Virus record (IMG/VR): IMGVR_UViG_3300012685_000002
Coordinates: 3,411 to 67,410 of that record
Origin: a virus
DNA length: 64,000 nucleotides
Reading direction: 5' to 3' (one strand)
Both the position numbers and the translations under genes were made by a program. The notes below the pieces were generated by a model that was given only the letters and a program-made list of their open reading frames with translations, was not told the DNA's origin and searched no databases. Of the stretch, positions 4,740 through 21,324 are shown one piece after another. Each line of letters starts with the position of its first letter. The first letter of the stretch is position 1.

Positions 4740-5102
4740 CTACTTCCCGATTGCCTTCTTCAGCTTCTCGCGCAGCTTGCCCTTCGGGCTGTCCGCGCCG
4801 CTAACGATCCGACTCCGGAGATCCGCGTTGAGCCAGCCCTTAGCTTTGCGGGTCTCACTGATGCGGAACGTGCCCTTGCCTTCGATGAAGGCCACAGCGC
4901 TGATGGGGCAGAAGTCTCCGCCCGCATCCTCCCTGATCTTCTGTCTGGCCAGCTCGGCCACCTCACCGTTGACCACCGTGCCACCGATGCGAAGCTTTAG
5001 TGCCTCTGGCCGTATGGTCGCACGAAGCGTACCGCCTTGAACCGTCCACTTCAGGTACGCGGTGGTCTTGCTCAGCGCCTTCAGAAAAGATTGCAACGTC
5101 AT
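4740..5102 (-). CDS. basic hypothetical protein
   Basis: start MTLQSFLK with GGAGG SD; lies between two tRNA-like RNAs. Confidence 0.75.
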   Translation of the reverse strand: MTLQSFLKALSKTTAYLKWTVQGGTLRATIRPEALKLRIGGTVVNGEVAELARQKIREDAGGDFCPISAVAFIEGKGTFRISETRKAKGWLNADLRSRIVSGADSPKGKLREKLKKAIGK

Positions 5103-5125: not shown

Positions 5126-5261
5126 TAGCCAAGCAAGGATTCGAACCTTGATCTCCCACCAGAGAGGCGGGGGTCCTCGGGAACAGTCCTGCATTTAAGT
5201 AGTGTGCCACCAGTTCCCCTATGCTATCATCAGCAATAGCATACCCTTAGACGACTCGGCC
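5126..5261 (-). ncRNA. tRNA-Glu-like scaffold RNA with ~65-nt D-loop insertion
   Basis: acceptor GGCCGAG/CTTGGCT, D stem GTCT/GGAC, shortened anticodon loop TCTCT, T arm CAAGG-TTCGAAT-CCTTG. Confidence 0.72.
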
Positions 5262-14507: not shown

Positions 14508-16094
14508 TTATTGCCCTCTCGCCCACCGCAGCACCTTCTTCAATGCGGTAGCGTCAGTGGTGATCTTGTTATTCCAGATGTTCTTGGGGGCCCCAATGGC
14601 CTCGTACAAGAAGGTCTTCATCTGCGCAGGAGAGTATGGATTGAAGTGGTACGCCGTGAGCTTGCCCGTACCGCTACAACGTACACAAGGATGGAGCGTC
14701 GCTCCGATCTTCTTCCCGGGCTTCTTAGCGTAACCTGCGCAGCGCCAACACGCTTGGCGGCTGACTGTCCCGCCCCCGCAGCAATCACAGCGCTTCTGCC
14801 GAGCAAACGCTGCCACTCCTTCGCGTTGAATGTAGCGAAGGCCTTCACCTGCGCTGATCTCTTTCGCAGCTTCTGCGCGGGCTTGTAGGGTAGATAGACG
14901 ATGGTGCTGGAGCTCGACATTGATCCGTACCCCTTTCAGTTGCATCTCTACCGTTGCGGGGTAGAGAGATGTGGCGAGTTCGTACTGGGCTTGGCAGCCT
15001 GCGGCCTCCATCTCGGGGAGCATACAGGCAGCCAGCCAGCGCGTGACGTAGGCATCGTTCCCGTTCAAGATGAACATCTTCTCGTTGTGCTGGGGATCAT
15101 CCGGGAGTGGATAGTCCTTCCACCAGGGCAAGTTGAAGTAGAGGGAGGCGAGGAACGCGAGGCCCTTGCGGCTCATACGGCTGGGCGTAATCGCTTTATC
15201 TTCTTCGTCCGTGTCACCAGATCCCGCAAGGTCAGGCTCCAGAGCCCACCACATTTGTTGTGTGTCGTGATGATAGTGACGTACACGGAGATCATAGAAG
15301 AGTCGCATCGCTGGCACGTCGAACCCAGGTCCGTTGTGTCCAACTTTCGGCACGTCGGACAGAAGAATCTGCTTCCCGTATAGGTCAAAGTAGTGTCCCC
15401 ACATCGCTACATACGGTTGCATGTCGTCTCCGCAGAAGCCGCTGCAGAGCAGTGCGGTCATGTCCCACTTCGTCTCAATGTCCCACGCCACCAATCGAGA
15501 GTGAAGAATCTTCTCCACTTGGGCTTGGGTCTGGAGACGGAGGGGTACCGGGAACGCATCACGGGGTAGATCACCAGCAAGCCAGCGTCTACCTCGACGG
15601 AGATCCATTCCCAGTAGATAGCGCCCTGGCGTAGGCTTGCGGAGCACTCCAGCGGGATGGAGGGTGGTGAGCACCAGACCGTCCGGTGTGTCCCAGAAGT
15701 AACCACGACGGTCTTCGATACCTTTGGCTCCAAGGATACCCCGCCCGGCAGTCGGCCATCGAGTACCGAGACAGGCGTATGATGCCTCGTTGCCGAGCGT
15801 GATAGTAAGGCTAGGCCGGAGTCTTCGACGGAGCTGTTGAAGCTGCTCAACTCCTTCAAGTACTCTTCCGGGCTCGTGAGCTTTGAAGTCGTTGGCCGGG
15901 GGACGCCAGCCACAGACGTTGGCGATGTTGACATCTTGGCGTCGGAGTCCGACGCTTCCGAGGACGGTGTCGAGGAGTTCCCCGGCTCGTCCAATGAACG
16001 GTCGTCCTTCACGTTCTTCATCCTCCCCAGGATCACGTCCAATCAACAGGATGTGTCCCGGCTCTGGGTGGTTGATCTCTGGCGGTACGAACAT
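14508..16094 (-). CDS. DNA polymerase N-terminal subunit: uracil-DNA glycosylase-like domain + 3'-5' exonuclease + thumb with Zn finger
   Basis: GRDPGEDEEREGRPFIGRAG and TLHPAGVLR (UDG family 4/5-like); WDIET, HNGPGFD, NGND exonuclease motifs; CxxC pairs; FNPYSPAQ. Confidence 0.88.
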   Translation of the reverse strand: MFVPPEINHPEPGHILLIGRDPGEDEEREGRPFIGRAGELLDTVLGSVGLRRQDVNIANVCGWRPPANDFKAHEPGRVLEGVEQLQQLRRRLRPSLTITLGNEASYACLGTRWPTAGRGILGAKGIEDRRGYFWDTPDGLVLTTLHPAGVLRKPTPGRYLLGMDLRRGRRWLAGDLPRDAFPVPLRLQTQAQVEKILHSRLVAWDIETKWDMTALLCSGFCGDDMQPYVAMWGHYFDLYGKQILLSDVPKVGHNGPGFDVPAMRLFYDLRVRHYHHDTQQMWWALEPDLAGSGDTDEEDKAITPSRMSRKGLAFLASLYFNLPWWKDYPLPDDPQHNEKMFILNGNDAYVTRWLAACMLPEMEAAGCQAQYELATSLYPATVEMQLKGVRINVELQHHRLSTLQARAEAAKEISAGEGLRYIQREGVAAFARQKRCDCCGGGTVSRQACWRCAGYAKKPGKKIGATLHPCVRCSGTGKLTAYHFNPYSPAQMKTFLYEAIGAPKNIWNNKITTDATALKKVLRWARGQ

Positions 16095-16306
16095 TATGGC
16101 CGAAGGATGCGGCTCTCAGGCTGCTTCGCTGCCATGAGCATGCCTTGCACCGCGCTCGTCAAGATACCGACGGCGGCATAGAGGTTCGCGACGTTGGACT
16201 GGATACTGATCTGGCCATCCGGCTCCAGCGTCACCATGATCTGTGCCTTGGGTGGCGCGACCGGCCGCATGGGCGGCGGGGCGTCGAGGTTGATGACATC
16301 AGTCAT
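16094..16306 (-). CDS. small hypothetical protein
   Basis: coupled to downstream gene. Confidence 0.65.
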   Translation of the reverse strand: MTDVINLDAPPPMRPVAPPKAQIMVTLEPDGQISIQSNVANLYAAVGILTSAVQGMLMAAKQPESRILRP

Positions 16307-16806
16307 GAGCTGGCTCCGTCGGCTTGGGGGACGGCTTCGATGCTTCCCGGGCTTCCTGGAAGATCTCCGCCAAGGACTTGTTCAGGTGCTGCATGATCTG
16401 GAGCGCTCCCTCCGGGTCCATCACGGGGATCGTTCCCGTAAACTCCCGGAGCAGGATCGTCCGCTCCGTGTGCTTCTTCGACGGCGCGTGCCGCCGTAGC
16501 TGGATCTTGAGAGAGACCAACCACATAGTTCACATCCATGAGGAAGTTGTCGAGAGCGGCACCCATGGAGGCGTAGCCGTCCGCCTTCCCGATCACGGTG
16601 TCGGCACGGTTGCCGAGGGCCGCGTCGCGAATGAAGCGGATGATGGGCTTGAGCAGGGGCTCGATGAGAAGCAGACAGTTCCGACAGGGACGGCCCTTGG
16701 ACTCCGTGTGATCGCACAGGAAGCCTGCGCAGCCACGCCAGAACTGATTCCCCAAGTGCTCTTCGTCTGCAGCGGAACCGATACGTTGGTACTTGAGTGA
16801 CGACAT
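16303..16806 (-). CDS. hypothetical protein (overlapping alternative frame 16299..16526 also plausible)
   Basis: start MSSLKYQ; Cys-rich N-terminus. Confidence 0.5.
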   Translation of the reverse strand: MSSLKYQRIGSAADEEHLGNQFWRGCAGFLCDHTESKGRPCRNCLLLIEPLLKPIIRFIRDAALGNRADTVIGKADGYASMGAALDNFLMDVNYVVGLSQDPATAARAVEEAHGADDPAPGVYGNDPRDGPGGSAPDHAAPEQVLGGDLPGSPGSIEAVPQADGASS

Positions 16807-16986
16807 CCGTTGATGCTTCACAACTCTTGCCTCACAAGAGGGTCTGGGAAGGGTGGCAGACTGGTGGAGGCAGGCGGAGCGGGGGGCTTGCCTACCGTGC
16901 GTGTTGTATCTGCCCTTTCGCACAGTACAACCAGCGGGGCCGACTTCCCATCAGACGACGTACCGCCTTACGCGGTGTACTGTGAG

Positions 16987-17057
16987 TTGGAGAGGTAGGA
17001 GTCGGACCCACATTCGACGGTTCAAGGCCGTCTGTCCTGCCATTGGACGACTCTCCA
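16987..17057 (-). tRNA. tRNA-Gln(TTG)
   Basis: cloverleaf; GACGG-CCTTGAA-CCGTC; C33; T loop TCCGACT. Confidence 0.88.
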
Positions 17058-17060
17058 GTA

Positions 17061-17129
17061 CAGCGAGTCTAGGTGTCGATCCCAGGACGGCAAGTTTTGG
17101 AGACTCGCCTGTACGCCGGTACACTCGCT
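17061..17129 (-). tRNA. tRNA-Trp(CCA), truncated D arm
   Basis: acceptor AGCGAGT/ACTCGCT; loop CTCCAAA; D arm GTAC-CGGC-GTAC. Confidence 0.75.
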
Positions 17130-17132
17130 ACA

Positions 17133-17204
17133 TGCAGCAACTAGGAATCGAACCTAGTCTCTCACCCATGTCAAGGGTGCGCGTTCCCATCTCGCTCTTG
17201 CTGC
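17133..17204 (-). tRNA. tRNA-Val(GAC)
   Basis: CACCC-TTGACAT-GGGTG; canonical T arm. Confidence 0.88.
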
Positions 17205-17633
17205 TCAGTAATCGACGATCAACTTGCCCTTCAAGTGATCGAGCTCGTGGAGCAGGACTCTCGCCATCAGTCCTGTGGCGTGGATCTGTTCCCAGAGACC
17301 GTCCACGCTGCGGTAGTCCACGATCACTTCCAGCGACCGCTTCACCGGCTTCGTGATCCCAGGGAGGGAGAGACAGCCTTCCTCCTGTTTGTTCCGGTTG
17401 ATCGACTGGGCCCGGAGATGCGGGTTGATCAACGCCAGCTTCTGGTTCTCGATGTTCACCACGATCACTTGCACCGGCTCGCCCACCTGGATCGCGGAGA
17501 GTCCTACGCCGATCCCTTCTACTGTCTCGAACATGTCGTCGATCAATGTCCGAACCCCGTCGTCGATCTCCTTGAGCGGAAGAGACTTCCGACGGAGTGC
17601 CTTCATATCGAACTCTACGATGGTGCGCTTCAT
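17205..17633 (-). CDS. def: peptide deformylase
   Basis: GVGLSAIQVG, EGCLS and HELDH signature motifs. Confidence 0.95.
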   Translation of the reverse strand: MKRTIVEFDMKALRRKSLPLKEIDDGVRTLIDDMFETVEGIGVGLSAIQVGEPVQVIVVNIENQKLALINPHLRAQSINRNKQEEGCLSLPGITKPVKRSLEVIVDYRSVDGLWEQIHATGLMARVLLHELDHLKGKLIVDY

Positions 17634-17635
17634 AG

Positions 17636-17709
17636 TGGAGGCATGGGGATTCGAACCCCAGTCGCTAGTTTGCGGGACTAGCATAATGCCCAGACTATAC
17701 GATACCCCC
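17636..17709 (-). tRNA. tRNA-Ala(CGC)
   Basis: G3:U70 pair; CTAGT-CCCGCAA-ACTAG; C33. Confidence 0.9.
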
Positions 17710-17713
17710 AAGA

Positions 17714-17916
17714 TGTGTGTTCCGTAGCCGCGATTCTGTTTTATCCCGTCATCTGTCTAAGCCCCAACCCGGGGTTCTCTAGGGTCAAGCGATCCCCTGT
17801 TTGGGTTGCAGCATTGCCGTGGTGCGAACCGCTACCCGCACTGCTTGGCGTCCCACGTCCCCATTGCTGTCGCGAACTTCCTCAGGTCTCTCGACCCGCG
17901 ACGGGTCGAACACACA
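17714..17916 (-). ncRNA. rnpB: minimal RNase P RNA (catalytic domain; reduced S-domain; no P18)
   Basis: CR-I GAGGAAGTTCGCG, CR-IV TAGACAGATGAC, CR-V AACAGAATCGCGGCTA; P1, P2, P3, P4, P5, P7 and P15 pair by eye. Confidence 0.9.
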
Positions 17917-17917
17917 G

Positions 17918-17990
17918 TTGGGGGAGCAGGGGTCGAACCTGCACTCTCCGGGTTCAGAGCCCGGCGTGTTGCCAGTTACACCATCCCTCA
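17918..17990 (-). tRNA. tRNA-Gln(CTG)
   Basis: CCGGG-CTCTGAA-CCCGG. Confidence 0.92.
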
Positions 17991-17991
17991 G

Positions 17992-18063
17992 TCTGGCTAC
18001 CGGGAGTCGAACCCGGACTAAGAGGATCGGAGCCTCTCGTGATGTCCGTTTCACTATAGCCAA
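17992..18063 (-). tRNA. tRNA-Arg(CCG)
   Basis: AGAGG-CTCCGAT-CCTCT. Confidence 0.9.
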
Positions 18064-18064
18064 G

Positions 18065-18136
18065 TCCGGCTGGTGGGAGTCGAACCCACACTGAAAGGTT
18101 CGTAGCCTTTCCGTCTCTCCGTTAGCTTACAGCCGA
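18065..18136 (-). tRNA. tRNA-Arg(ACG)
   Basis: AAAGG-CTACGAA-CCTTT. Confidence 0.88.
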
Positions 18137-18137
18137 G

Positions 18138-18210
18138 TTGGACTCCACGGAATCGAACCGCAGCCTGCTGCTTTTCAGGCAGCCGTGCGCACCAGCTACA
18201 CCAGAATCCA
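18138..18210 (-). tRNA. tRNA-Phe(GAA)
   Basis: GCTGC-CTGAAAA-GCAGC. Confidence 0.9.
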
Positions 18211-18211
18211 G

Positions 18212-18280
18212 ACCGCTCGGAGGGACTCGAACCCTCATTGCTCCGGTAGAAACGGAGTCGCTGTCCATCAGCACGAGCAG
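18212..18280 (-). tRNA. tRNA-Arg(TCT), short D arm
   Basis: CTCCG-TTTCTAC-CGGAG. Confidence 0.82.
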
Positions 18281-18281
18281 A

Positions 18282-18536
18282 TTAGTGACGCTCTCGCCAC
18301 CAACAGCTGGTGGGGCGTCCGATCACTGCTTCCCCGTATACCTTCCGTGTGACGAAGCACACCATCACGGGGCTTCCTACTGCTTGCAACCAATACGCTT
18401 CGGTCCCGGTTCCATCATAGCTCCGTGGCCAGTAGGCACGTACAGGGCAGCTGGGGCTCGACACGTCTGGACAGTAGCCCATGTCCTTCACTGTCAGGCC
18501 CTGTGTCATCAGGAGAGCTGCGAGCCAGGTCCACAT
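18282..18536 (-). CDS. inter-tRNA hypothetical protein (84 aa)
   Basis: exactly fills the gap between tRNA-Asp and tRNA-Arg. Confidence 0.6.
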   Translation of the reverse strand: MWTWLAALLMTQGLTVKDMGYCPDVSSPSCPVRAYWPRSYDGTGTEAYWLQAVGSPVMVCFVTRKVYGEAVIGRPTSCWWRERH

Positions 18537-18537
18537 A

Positions 18538-18611
18538 CGCGACTGGAGGGATTCGAACCCTCGCTCTTCTCCGTGACAGGGAGATGGCTTGGACCGCTAG
18601 CCGACAATCGC
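18538..18611 (-). tRNA. tRNA-Asp(GTC)
   Basis: TCTCC-CTGTCAC-GGAGA; G73. Confidence 0.92.
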
Positions 18612-18641
18612 ATTGAGATAGTTTACTGTCATATCTCAGGA

Positions 18642-18734
18642 CTATGTTCTCTTCACTACTCCACAACGACACAACCAGTACCGACTTGCACCCCACGGAT
18701 AAATAATCCGTGTCCACCAATGTTTGTGTTTCAT
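18642..18734 (-). CDS. inter-tRNA micro-ORF (30 aa, MKHKHWW...CRCG)
   Basis: ATG 2 nt after tRNA-Ser discriminator; HxH..W..CxCG motif as in ORF 9205..9612. Confidence 0.5.
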   Translation of the reverse strand: MKHKHWWTRIIYPWGASRYWLCRCGVVKRT

Positions 18735-18736
18735 AG

Positions 18737-18819
18737 CGGAAGGTCAGAGACTCGAACTCTGGAACCCGTTAGGGCCAGCGGTTTTCGGGACCGTTTCCTC
18801 GACCGGCCGGACACCTTCC
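18737..18819 (-). tRNA. tRNA-Ser(CGA)
   Basis: loop CCCGAAA (C33); variable arm; G73. Confidence 0.85.
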
Positions 18820-18821
18820 AT

Positions 18822-18908
18822 TTATTGCGGCTGTGCGCTCGCTCCACCATGATCTTCAGGAGCATCTGACAACTCTCGCCATCTACGCACAGCTTCATCT
18901 GTTGTCAT
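18822..18908 (-). CDS. inter-tRNA micro-ORF (28 aa, MTTDEAVRRWRE...)
   Basis: fills gap between two tRNA-Ser genes. Confidence 0.45.
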   Translation of the reverse strand: MTTDEAVRRWRELSDAPEDHGGASAQPQ

Positions 18909-18909
18909 A

Positions 18910-19000
18910 CGGAGCGTCCAGGATTCGAACCTGGGTGGGGCCTCTGTGAGACTCCTCTGCGTTAGCACCGCAGCGCATTCAACCGCTCTGCCAACGCTCC
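18910..19000 (-). tRNA. tRNA-Ser(GCT)
   Basis: CTGCG-GTGCTAA-CGCAG; long variable arm. Confidence 0.92.
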
Positions 19001-19003
19001 AAG

Positions 19004-19083
19004 TCGTGGACCTAGGGTTCGAACCTAGCATGCCGAAGCGTCTGGTTTACAGCCAGGTGGGACACCGTAGTCCCTTGTCCACG
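19004..19083 (-). tRNA. tRNA-Tyr(GTA), C1:G72
   Basis: loop CTGTAAA; acceptor CGTGGAC/GTCCACG; short V arm. Confidence 0.87.
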
Positions 19084-19086
19084 AAG

Positions 19087-19158
19087 AGCCAAGTGCGTGA
19101 CTCGAACACGCGCTCCCGGTTTACGAAACCGGCGGTCTACCTGTTAACCTAACGAGGC
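19087..19158 (-). tRNA. tRNA-Thr(CGT)
   Basis: CCGGT-TTCGTAA-ACCGG; acceptor mismatches at pairs 4 and 5. Confidence 0.85.
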
Positions 19159-19310
19159 GTAAGCTTCTCGAACTTCTTCAGCACATCCTTGAGCTTCTTC
19201 AGCCGGACTCCCTCTGCCACCTGCACGGAGAGTCCATTTCGAAGCGCGTTGCCATAGGCCACGCTGGTCTCTAGCACCAGCTCTCGGATCTGCTGCATCG
19301 TCAACTCCAT
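19149..19310 (-). CDS. inter-tRNA small protein (53 aa, MELTMQQIRELV...)
   Basis: ATG 2 nt after tRNA-Asn; phage-like codon usage; stop overlaps tRNA-Thr 5' end. Confidence 0.6.
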   Translation of the reverse strand: MELTMQQIRELVLETSVAYGNALRNGLSVQVAEGVRLKKLKDVLKKFEKLTPR

Positions 19311-19312
19311 AA

Positions 19313-19384
19313 CTGGGACCGGAGGATTCGAACCTCCATCTCAGCGGGTAACAGCCGCGTGACTTGCCATTCGCCCAGATCCCA
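19313..19384 (-). tRNA. tRNA-Asn(GTT)
   Basis: loop CTGTTAC; G73. Confidence 0.87.
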
Positions 19385-19915: not shown

Positions 19916-19964
19916 GTGAAGCCCACCGATCCGCAGACCAGGGGCTAGTCTCTTCTATGTACAG

Positions 19965-20044: not shown

Positions 20045-20185
20045 CTACTTCTTCCCAGCGTGCTTGAAGTACTCGACCTGCCGTTCCCGCTTCACTGCGG
20101 CGGCCTTGCTCCCAGGCTTCGAGAGGGGCTTGCCGGTCTTCTTGCTCTTCAGAACGAACTTCCCGCCGGTCTTCACGATGGTCAT
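20045..20185 (-). CDS. small highly basic protein (46 aa, ...AVKRERQVEYFKH)
   Basis: AAGGGGA SD, tandem TAG stops, phage-typical codon usage. Confidence 0.75.
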   Translation of the reverse strand: MTIVKTGGKFVLKSKKTGKPLSKPGSKAAAVKRERQVEYFKHAGKK

Positions 20186-20743: not shown

Positions 20744-20815
20744 TGGGAGAGGAGGGTTCCGACCCCTCTTCTGGAGTTTGAAGGACTCCTGTCCTAGCCA
20801 GTAGACGAATCTCCC
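20744..20815 (-). tRNA. tRNA-Glu(TTC)
   Basis: GGAGT-CCTTCAA-ACTCC; C33; T loop GTCGGAA. Confidence 0.82.
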
Positions 20816-21295: not shown

Positions 21296-21324
21296 ATAAT
21301 ATCTATGGGTCCACCAGTTGTCAA
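21296..21324 (-). promoter_or_regulatory. sigma70-type promoter of the tRNA/rnpB operon
   Basis: TTGACA-N17-TATTAT; overlapped by inverted repeat TGGACCCATA-N5-TATGGGTCCA. Confidence 0.85.

Follow-up and report, generated by a model that had tools for sequence, protein, structure and literature searches.

The window considered here is a stretch of 64,000 nucleotides (nt) corresponding to bases 3411-67410 of the 67,410-bp virus record IMGVR_UViG_3300012685_000002, which has direct terminal repeats and is rated complete. All long open reading frames (ORFs) of the window are carried by its minus strand, to which all coordinates below refer, and the same strand holds an array of transfer RNA (tRNA) genes. 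Within this array, five ORFs begin with an ATG located 1-2 nt after the discriminator base (N73) of a tRNA. This pattern of flush ATGs is real and chance is ruled out. Judged from homology, two of these ORFs are genuine genes with the flush ATG as their start: def, encoding a peptide deformylase (Def), and a gene of 84 amino acids (aa) belonging to an unnamed conserved family. In both cases, there is no room for a Shine-Dalgarno (SD) sequence because the upstream nucleotides are those of a tRNA, as the initial annotation of this DNA had suggested. The explanation that we favor is that cleavage at the tRNA 3' ends would free near-leaderless mRNAs, which we consider to be about as likely as not.

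The genes and tRNAs that define the junctions are as follows.

17205-17633, minus strand: def, 142-aa peptide deformylase (PF01327, 4.1e-38; codon log-likelihood ratio, LLR, +63.8 bits)
17636-17709, minus strand: tRNA-Ala(cgc), with G3:U70 and A73, upstream of def (ARAGORN; Rfam 48.9 bits)
17133-17204, minus strand: tRNA-Val(gac), beginning at the base that follows the def stop codon (ARAGORN; Rfam 55.7 bits)
18282-18536, minus strand: 84-aa gene, unnamed conserved family, ATG 1 nt after tRNA-Asp G73 (homologues, AlphaFold2)
18538-18611, minus strand: tRNA-Asp(gtc), G73 (ARAGORN; Rfam 64 bits)
18211-18280, minus strand: tRNA-Arg(tct), downstream of the 84-aa gene (ARAGORN)
19149-19310, minus strand: 53-aa ORF, coding-like (codon LLR +25.7; +24.1 on the gap alone)
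19313-19384, minus strand: tRNA-Asn(gtt), G73 (ARAGORN; Rfam 50.1 bits)
19086-19158, minus strand: tRNA-Thr(cgt), sharing its first 10 nt with the end of the 53-aa ORF (ARAGORN; Rfam)
18822-18908, minus strand: 28-aa micro-ORF after tRNA-Ser(gct) (codon LLR -10.0 and -12.7)
18642-18734, minus strand: 30-aa micro-ORF after tRNA-Ser(cga) (codon LLR -5.2 and -6.6; folding of the gap against shuffled sequences, z -0.60)

Discriminators were placed by two tRNA finders, ARAGORN and the Rfam tRNA model. The five junctions proposed in the initial annotation are all found by ARAGORN, and four of them by Rfam as well. A73 of tRNA-Ala, at 17636, is followed by C, T and the def ATG at 17633; G73 of tRNA-Asp, at 18538, by T and the ATG of the 84-aa gene at 18536; G73 of tRNA-Ser(cga), a tRNA that Rfam did not list, is at 18737 and precedes C, T and the ATG of the 30-aa ORF at 18734; G73 of tRNA-Ser(gct), at 18910, is followed by T and the ATG of the 28-aa ORF at 18908; finally, G73 of tRNA-Asn, at 19313, is followed by two T and the ATG of the 53-aa ORF at 19310. 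On the 3' side, the def TGA (17207-17205) directly abuts G1 of tRNA-Val(gac) at 17204, the TAA of the 84-aa gene (18284-18282) is located 1 nt before tRNA-Arg(tct) at 18280, and that of the 28-aa ORF (18824-18822) 2 nt before tRNA-Ser(cga) at 18819, which agrees with the earlier description. The TAG of the 53-aa ORF (19151-19149), on which that description was silent, lies within tRNA-Thr(cgt), at tRNA positions 8-10.

Flush ATGs are found in 5 of the 13 non-tRNA gaps of 48 nt or more, where fewer than one would be expected. Using the minus-strand ATG frequency of 0.0148, the probability of finding at least 5 among 13 ranges from 8.7e-8, when one position after the T is allowed, to 6.2e-4, when four positions are allowed. 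At least two of the 13 gaps are occupied by RNAs (an RNase P RNA-like element and a cloverleaf, both described below), and dropping them strengthens the excess. The start codon is ATG in all five ORFs.

By homology, def is with certainty a real gene and its start is necessarily the flush ATG. The protein matches PF01327 with 130.9 bits (cut-off 22.8), its residues 3-141 being aligned with profile positions 2-148, and the motifs GVGLSAIQ, EGCLS and HELDH (GxGxAAxQ, EGCLS and HExxH in the family) are intact. The invariant columns of the alignment are G42, G44, L45, A47, Q49, E85-S89, H129, E130 and H133. Among solved deformylases, residues 6-147 of 8s1x_A align from residue 5 of Def (E = 2.7e-23); thus, the protein possesses the first strand and an N-terminus of canonical length. 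In the nearest relative (P0002, 73% identical), Def starts at the equivalent residue, and the gene call of the sequence collection is also the 142-aa form. Profile match, catalytic motifs and codon signal together uphold the earlier view that Def is intact and that at least one of the flush cases is real.

Two other starts of Def were considered and rejected. Met10 is located within the conserved xPDPxLR region and is preceded only by a weak GAG; a start at this position would delete the first strand, and residues 3-9 match both the profile and the solved deformylases. The alternative left open in the initial annotation, a start at this internal methionine (MKALRRK) with its own ribosome-binding site, is therefore contradicted by the alignments with the profile and with the solved structures. 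In-frame starts within tRNA-Ala (a TTG at 17711 and an ATG) would be embedded in a folded tRNA, with no ribosome-binding site, and would add an extension that the homologues do not have. At the other end, Def finishes with ...GKLIVDY, right after the HExxH helix region, without the C-terminal helix of cellular enzymes. In this respect, it resembles the short deformylases of Vibrio phage VP16T (orf60T, 5mtc, 137 aa; match E = 2.1e-12) and of Synechococcus phage S-SSM7 (3uwa, 154 aa; E = 2.1e-15), but it is best matched by the cellular-type 8s1x_A.

The 84-aa ORF is, from the comparison with its homologues, a real gene starting at the flush ATG. An exhaustive profile search retrieved 26 homologues at E<=1e-3, including 20 at E<=1e-10 that are 47-59% identical. 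Members of the family share a hydrophobic N-terminal segment and four cysteines, and the Met1 of the homologues aligns with Met1 of the present protein. C22 and C30 are invariant over 19 sequences, and C60 and C78 over the six closest; C60 is replaced by Ala in 3 of the 19. AlphaFold2 predicts a confident fold, with a predicted local distance difference test score (pLDDT) of 91.6, and the codon-model score is weak (+5.8). No in-frame start codon was found upstream. Starts at Met10 or Met19 were rejected, as they would remove the conserved hydrophobic segment, and so was a structured RNA occupying this gap, the fold of which is no better than that of shuffled sequences (z +0.41). The family has no match in Pfam or PHROG and no Foldseek match in the PDB at E<=0.001.

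The situation of the three other flush ORFs is less uniform. The 53-aa ORF is coding-like, but a second possible start is available at ATG 19298 (Met5), preceded at 6 nt by a GGAG formed from the first ATG-GAG, and the collection's call is the corresponding 49-aa form. Its start is thus ambiguous between the flush ATG at 19310 and Met5. The only homologue found for the protein is itself, and there is no PHROG match. The 28- and 30-aa ORFs have lengths that are unremarkable in terms of open-length chance (P = 0.57 and 0.55, respectively). The 89-nt gap at 18820-18908 that holds the 28-aa ORF folds better than shuffled sequences (z -2.42) and may correspond to a small structured RNA. With negative codon scores and no homologue evidence, these two ORFs do not sustain the earlier idea that they are released as mRNAs.

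The array itself comprises 30 tRNA genes between 16986 and 21282, as found by ARAGORN. An additional tRNA at 20744-20815 (minus strand), missed by ARAGORN, is recognized by Rfam with 35.9 bits and has the anticodon loop CCUUCAA (Glu-UUC). Moreover, the 75-nt gap at 17058-17132 (minus strand), also missed by ARAGORN, folds as a Trp-like cloverleaf with the loop CUCCAAA and a CCA anticodon; this cloverleaf, found by folding only (z -2.61), has an unusual T-loop. Another gap of 48 nt, at 19916-19963 (minus strand), folds better than shuffled sequences (z -2.45) and may contain a small structured RNA. Many tRNAs of the array adjoin the next one with 0-2 nt between them. None of them has an encoded CCA; instead, the discriminator is followed by C-T in 22 of the 30 tRNAs (N73-C-T) and directly by T in six (N73-T). 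Each of the four tRNAs with a G73 is followed by a flush ATG. The N73-(C)-U rule is common to the tRNA-tRNA junctions, to the junction between tRNA and the RNase P RNA-like element, and to the tRNA-ORF junctions, so that one processing logic seems to serve all three. A flush ATG sits where the next tRNA would otherwise begin.

A promoter-like site is located just upstream of the first tRNA.

21296-21324, minus strand: sigma-70-like promoter, TTGACA-17-TATTAT, matching 11 of the 12 consensus positions

Between 16000 and 22500, no other promoter-like site was found, and no terminator-like site on the minus strand. Internal promoters that would produce primary leaderless transcripts were looked for and rejected, there being no -10-like hexamer in the 13 nt preceding the flush ATGs. 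With one promoter upstream, none inside and no terminator, the array looks like a single transcription unit.

An SD-like sequence of at least 4 nt precedes 40 of 71 genes of the phage, as compared with 173 of 844 internal start-like codons; the 71 genes are crude ORF-based calls with a crude choice of starts. Upstream of the flush starts at 19310, 18536 and 17633, the 20 nt are tRNA sequence and contain no SD match. Genes located close to tRNAs in this genome can carry ordinary signals. Thus, the 120-aa gene at 4740-5102 (minus strand) has a GGGAGGA ribosome-binding site and begins 24 nt after a tRNA-like RNA, the 3' end of which is near 5126; the ORF-based list had mis-started it at a GTG inside this RNA. 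Within the array, a lysine-rich ORF with no PHROG match offers a contrast to the flush ORFs, since an AAGGGGA ribosome-binding site of its own precedes its ATG, about 21 nt beyond tRNA-Glu.

20045-20185, minus strand: 46-aa Lys-rich ORF between tRNA-Glu(ctc) and tRNA-Leu(caa) (LLR +13.5)

Furthermore, homologues of the 84-aa gene on other phage contigs are preceded by GAGGAGG or GGAG and have no adjoining tRNA. Taken with the other genes of the phage, these homologues indicate that the ribosome-binding site is specifically absent from the flush genes.

The association of Def with tRNAs is also encountered elsewhere. Searching viral contigs with a three-sequence Def alignment gave 80 loci with 32-44% identity, 12 of which have tRNAs within 4 kb. 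At two of these loci, L066 and L073, Def is found between tRNA-Thr and tRNA-Val(GAC) and starts 2-5 nt after an encoded CCA; in L073, only TTG starts are available at this distance. In L002, which is identical to L003, Def begins 19 nt after a tRNA, the AT-rich spacer containing no SD site. At five distinct loci (L002/L003, L006, L008, L066 and L073), Def runs into the tRNA that follows, and its stop codon ends at position 10 or 11 of this tRNA; in L009/L010, the stop is 2 nt before the tRNA. In three separate lineages (the present phage, L002 and L066/L073), the tRNA downstream of Def is a tRNA-Val(GAC). Common descent of this downstream tRNA was considered and rejected, as the alignment shows only the general conservation of tRNAs. 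The location of def was also examined in two cultured phages, Caulobacter phage CcrPW and Brevundimonas phage Kabachok, out of 145 records matching Def; in both, the gene is located among ordinary protein genes and is not flush with tRNAs. The recurrence of Def between tRNAs in unrelated phages suggests that this layout is probably a general design rather than a one-genome curiosity.

A separate observation concerns the spacers L002 2321-2342, L002 3952-3973, L066 617-631 and L073 1034-1052. They contain TAAATA and no SD sequence, and real-looking genes start there 12-19 nt after a tRNA. The TAAATA motif could be a -10-like element producing leaderless transcripts.

Considering the properties of the array, the following mechanism may be envisaged as the most likely one. 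Transcription from the promoter at 21324-21296 would yield a single long precursor covering the array. In this precursor, def and the 84-aa gene, and perhaps also the 53-aa ORF, would occupy tRNA slots, each presenting N73, an optional C, a U and the ATG. A tRNA 3' endonuclease of the host would then cut at or just after the discriminator. Candidates would be an enzyme of the RNase Z type, one of the RNase E type, or an actinomycete activity cutting after C74. Cleavage would leave an mRNA with a 5'-monophosphate and 0-2 nt before its AUG; in the case of a cut after C74, the message would here begin with U-AUG. Such an mRNA would be read by a leaderless route, 70S-type and independent of any SD sequence, and RNase P acting at the next tRNA would trim its 3' side. 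The anatomy of the array, the status of def and of the 84-aa ORF as genes and the lack of space for a ribosome-binding site are established from the sequence, whereas we infer that the array is transcribed as a unit, that the transcript is cut and that translation begins in the leaderless manner. Precedents for parts of this scheme exist: two papers on Streptomyces coelicolor and Propionibacterium acnes indicate that tRNA precursors are cut after C74 and that leaders shorter than 10 nt are common in these bacteria (PMC4681348; PMC3848588).

Since no internal promoter-like site was found and no ribosome would arrive from an upstream ORF, de novo initiation is needed at an AUG located 2-3 nt from an acceptor stem. 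A folded acceptor stem at this distance from the P-site codon should clash with the mRNA exit path of the 30S subunit. In view of this expected clash, the tRNA probably must be cut away first. Whether excision of the tRNA would be an obligatory step, making Def and small accessory proteins translatable in phages with large tRNA operons, is a more tentative matter, on which we lean slightly to the negative. If it were so, Def synthesis would be tied to the maturation of the phage tRNAs, in a bacterial-virus counterpart of mitochondrial punctuation.

An element of the same operon may serve tRNA excision.

17713-17917, minus strand: RNase P RNA-like element, 205 nt (RF00373, archaeal, 48.9 bits, E = 9.5e-12; gathering score 84)

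This element fills the 207-nt gap between tRNA-Gln(ctg) and tRNA-Ala, with a score below the gathering threshold. The alignment covers the core stretches GAGGAAG and ACAGAA...GGCUAC but lacks most of the specificity domain. Its P1 arms begin after the discriminator of tRNA-Gln plus a C, and end 3 nt before tRNA-Ala.

Several observations weigh against release by tRNA cleavage. The phage encodes no RNase Z-like protein, no CCA-adding enzyme and no RnpA, which implies a dependence on host enzymes, and it is too distant from known phages for a host to be named (20-22% identity for portal and capsid). An obvious SD sequence is absent from 31 of the 71 genes, again with crude starts, so that SD-independent initiation is not rare in this genome. 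Over their first 45 nt, the flush ORFs show no less structure than other genes do; hence, their start regions are not especially open. Two of the five ORFs, those of 28 and 30 aa, have neither homologue evidence nor coding support, and a third, the 53-aa ORF, has a plausible SD-led internal start. Finally, stop codons lie inside the downstream tRNA in the 53-aa ORF and in Def at five other loci. There, a cut by RNase P would give an mRNA without a stop codon, which suggests that translation on the uncut precursor can, or must, occur. The mitochondrial analogy therefore fails as a general rule, at least for its 3' half. The punctuation interpretation of the initial annotation is therefore retained in part: def, the 84-aa gene and the single promoter speak for it, whereas the 28- and 30-aa ORFs and the 3' end of the 53-aa ORF do not fit. 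In particular, the idea that RNase P defines the mRNA 3' ends fails for the 53-aa ORF, the stop codon of which is part of tRNA-Thr.

The stop codons buried in tRNAs lead to another possible mechanism, where translation would occur on an uncut or partly cut precursor, the ribosome loading without an SD sequence just past the tRNA. In a variant of this model, the tRNA-mRNA chimera itself may be the message: the tRNA would cap and protect its 5' end, and would be freed later, upon decay of the mRNA part from the 3' end. To terminate translation, the 53-aa ORF and Def of L002/L003, L006, L008, L066 and L073 need the downstream tRNA to remain attached, which is readily accommodated by such a model; so are the 31 genes without an obvious SD sequence and the L073 Def with only TTG starts, TTG being a poor leaderless start. 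However, the need for a downstream tRNA concerns the 3' side only and gives no argument against a cut on the 5' side. In addition, the start regions are not unusually open, and a stable stack of the acceptor and T arms 2-3 nt before the start should block the 30S mRNA path. Overall, we consider initiation on an uncut precursor to be unlikely.

It may also be asked whether the flush ATGs simply are a by-product of extreme packing, the true starts being internal (Met5 of the 53-aa ORF, Met10 of Def) with weak ribosome-binding sites. Phage genomes are tight, many starts and stops overlap in this one, and the 53-aa ORF, with a GGAG 6 nt before ATG 19298 and a 49-aa call in the collection, is what would be expected. 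This explanation is nevertheless hard to reconcile with Def, where residues 3-9 match the profile, Met10 has only its weak GAG, the call is 142 aa and P0002 uses the same start, or with the 84-aa gene, which would lose its conserved hydrophobic segment with a start at Met10 or Met19. It also leaves unexplained why ATG is exactly at +2/+3 in 5 of the 13 gaps. Packing is thus an improbable account of the whole pattern. Equally improbable is the view that the ORFs of the array are relics or negligibly expressed, their flush position having no translational role in what would be an RNA operon: the negative codon scores of the 28- and 30-aa ORFs, the structured gap of the former (z -2.42) and the RNAs filling other gaps (the RNase P-like element and the extra tRNA-like cloverleaves) are in its favor, but it is countered by Def, with three catalytic motifs and a strong codon signal, by the intact 84-aa gene with its 47-59% identity to homologues and confident fold, and by the finding of Def again wedged between tRNAs in unrelated phages.

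The phage that carries this array is distant from cultured ones. Its proteins include PHROG matches to a terminase, a portal, a major head protein, a DNA polymerase and a Sak4-like protein. The best match of the capsid is a single uncultured record, with 22% identity. The portal matches five Arthrobacter phage records with 20% identity (E = 3e-4), which is too weak for a host assignment. When the 84-aa family was compared with genome contigs, a single match of 22 residues was obtained, in a Rhodanobacter metagenome-assembled genome, and is uninformative on the host. Comparison of the region with GenBank phages using blastn gave only two short tRNA-like matches, and scanning viral contigs with Def alone and with the Sak4-like protein alone revealed no close relative. 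One metagenome contig of 3,488 bp (L083) is 100% identical to positions 15740-18937 of the window across 3,198 nt. Its first 290 nt (1-290) are unrelated sequence, joined within the T-arm of tRNA-Ser(gct); this join is probably an assembly chimera formed at a conserved tRNA motif.

If release by tRNA cleavage proves true, it would represent a third route to translation start in phage-infected cells, beside SD-led initiation and initiation on leaderless mRNAs made by promoters, and would link protein output to RNA processing. It would also explain why gene callers mis-start or miss genes in phage tRNA arrays, as exemplified by the 53-aa ORF, the call of which is cut to 49 aa. In this context, Def is particularly suited to a test, since comparison with solved enzymes fixes its N-terminus, and the 84-aa gene offers a natural comparison with SD-led homologues.

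Literature searches on tRNA punctuation in phages, on leaderless mRNAs linked to tRNAs and on RNase P RNAs of phages yielded no description of genes flush with phage tRNAs. The closest parallel is the tRNA punctuation of animal mitochondrial transcripts, reportedly described by Ojala, Montoya and Attardi in 1981. As in that system, in which 0-2 nt separate the mRNAs from the tRNAs, def is 2 nt away from the upstream tRNA-Ala and in direct contact with the downstream tRNA-Val, and the 84-aa gene is 1 nt away from tRNA-Asp on its 5' side and from tRNA-Arg on its 3' side, all on the same strand. A polycistronic precursor, excision of tRNAs setting the mRNA ends and near-leaderless messages devoid of an SD site would be further common features, predicted here from sequence. 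On another hand, the present case is that of a bacterial virus with a bacterial-type promoter, and supported genes are found at only two or three of about 33 tRNA junctions. Moreover, the stop codons are complete (TGA in def, TAA in the 84-aa gene), with no stops completed by polyadenylation, the TAG of the 53-aa ORF is within tRNA-Thr and would be lost on cleavage, and conventional ribosome-binding sites precede most of the phage genes.

Leaderless mRNAs in bacteria provide a second comparison. In E. coli, the cI mRNA of phage lambda is leaderless. Leaderless mRNAs are common in Actinobacteria, where the term includes messages with fewer than 10 nt of leader (PMC3848588; PMC4681348), and also in Deinococcus (PMC4007540). 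The AUG start and the lack of an SD site are shared with the flush genes; however, those mRNAs are made by promoters and carry a 5' triphosphate, whereas the messages considered here would be made by cleavage and carry a 5' monophosphate. Production of leaderless mRNAs by cleavage has a precedent in the MazF system of E. coli (Vesper et al., 2011, as cited in PMC3848588 and PMC4681348). There too, an endonuclease acts post-transcriptionally just upstream of the AUG, as is proposed in the present case. MazF, however, is a stress toxin that cuts at ACA sites and leaves 5'-OH ends, whereas the cut would here belong to routine tRNA maturation and be fixed by tRNA structure.

Finally, tRNAs and protein genes are found in one transcript in the mixed operons of E. 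coli, such as thrU-tyrU-glyT-thrT-tufB and secG-leuU, in which they are separated by RNase P and RNase E. In contrast to the flush genes, the mRNAs of these operons have ordinary leaders, in which tens of nt separate the ribosome-binding site from the tRNA. The array described here thus combines, within a bacterial virus, features of tRNA punctuation, of leaderless mRNAs, of the MazF system and of mixed tRNA-mRNA operons.

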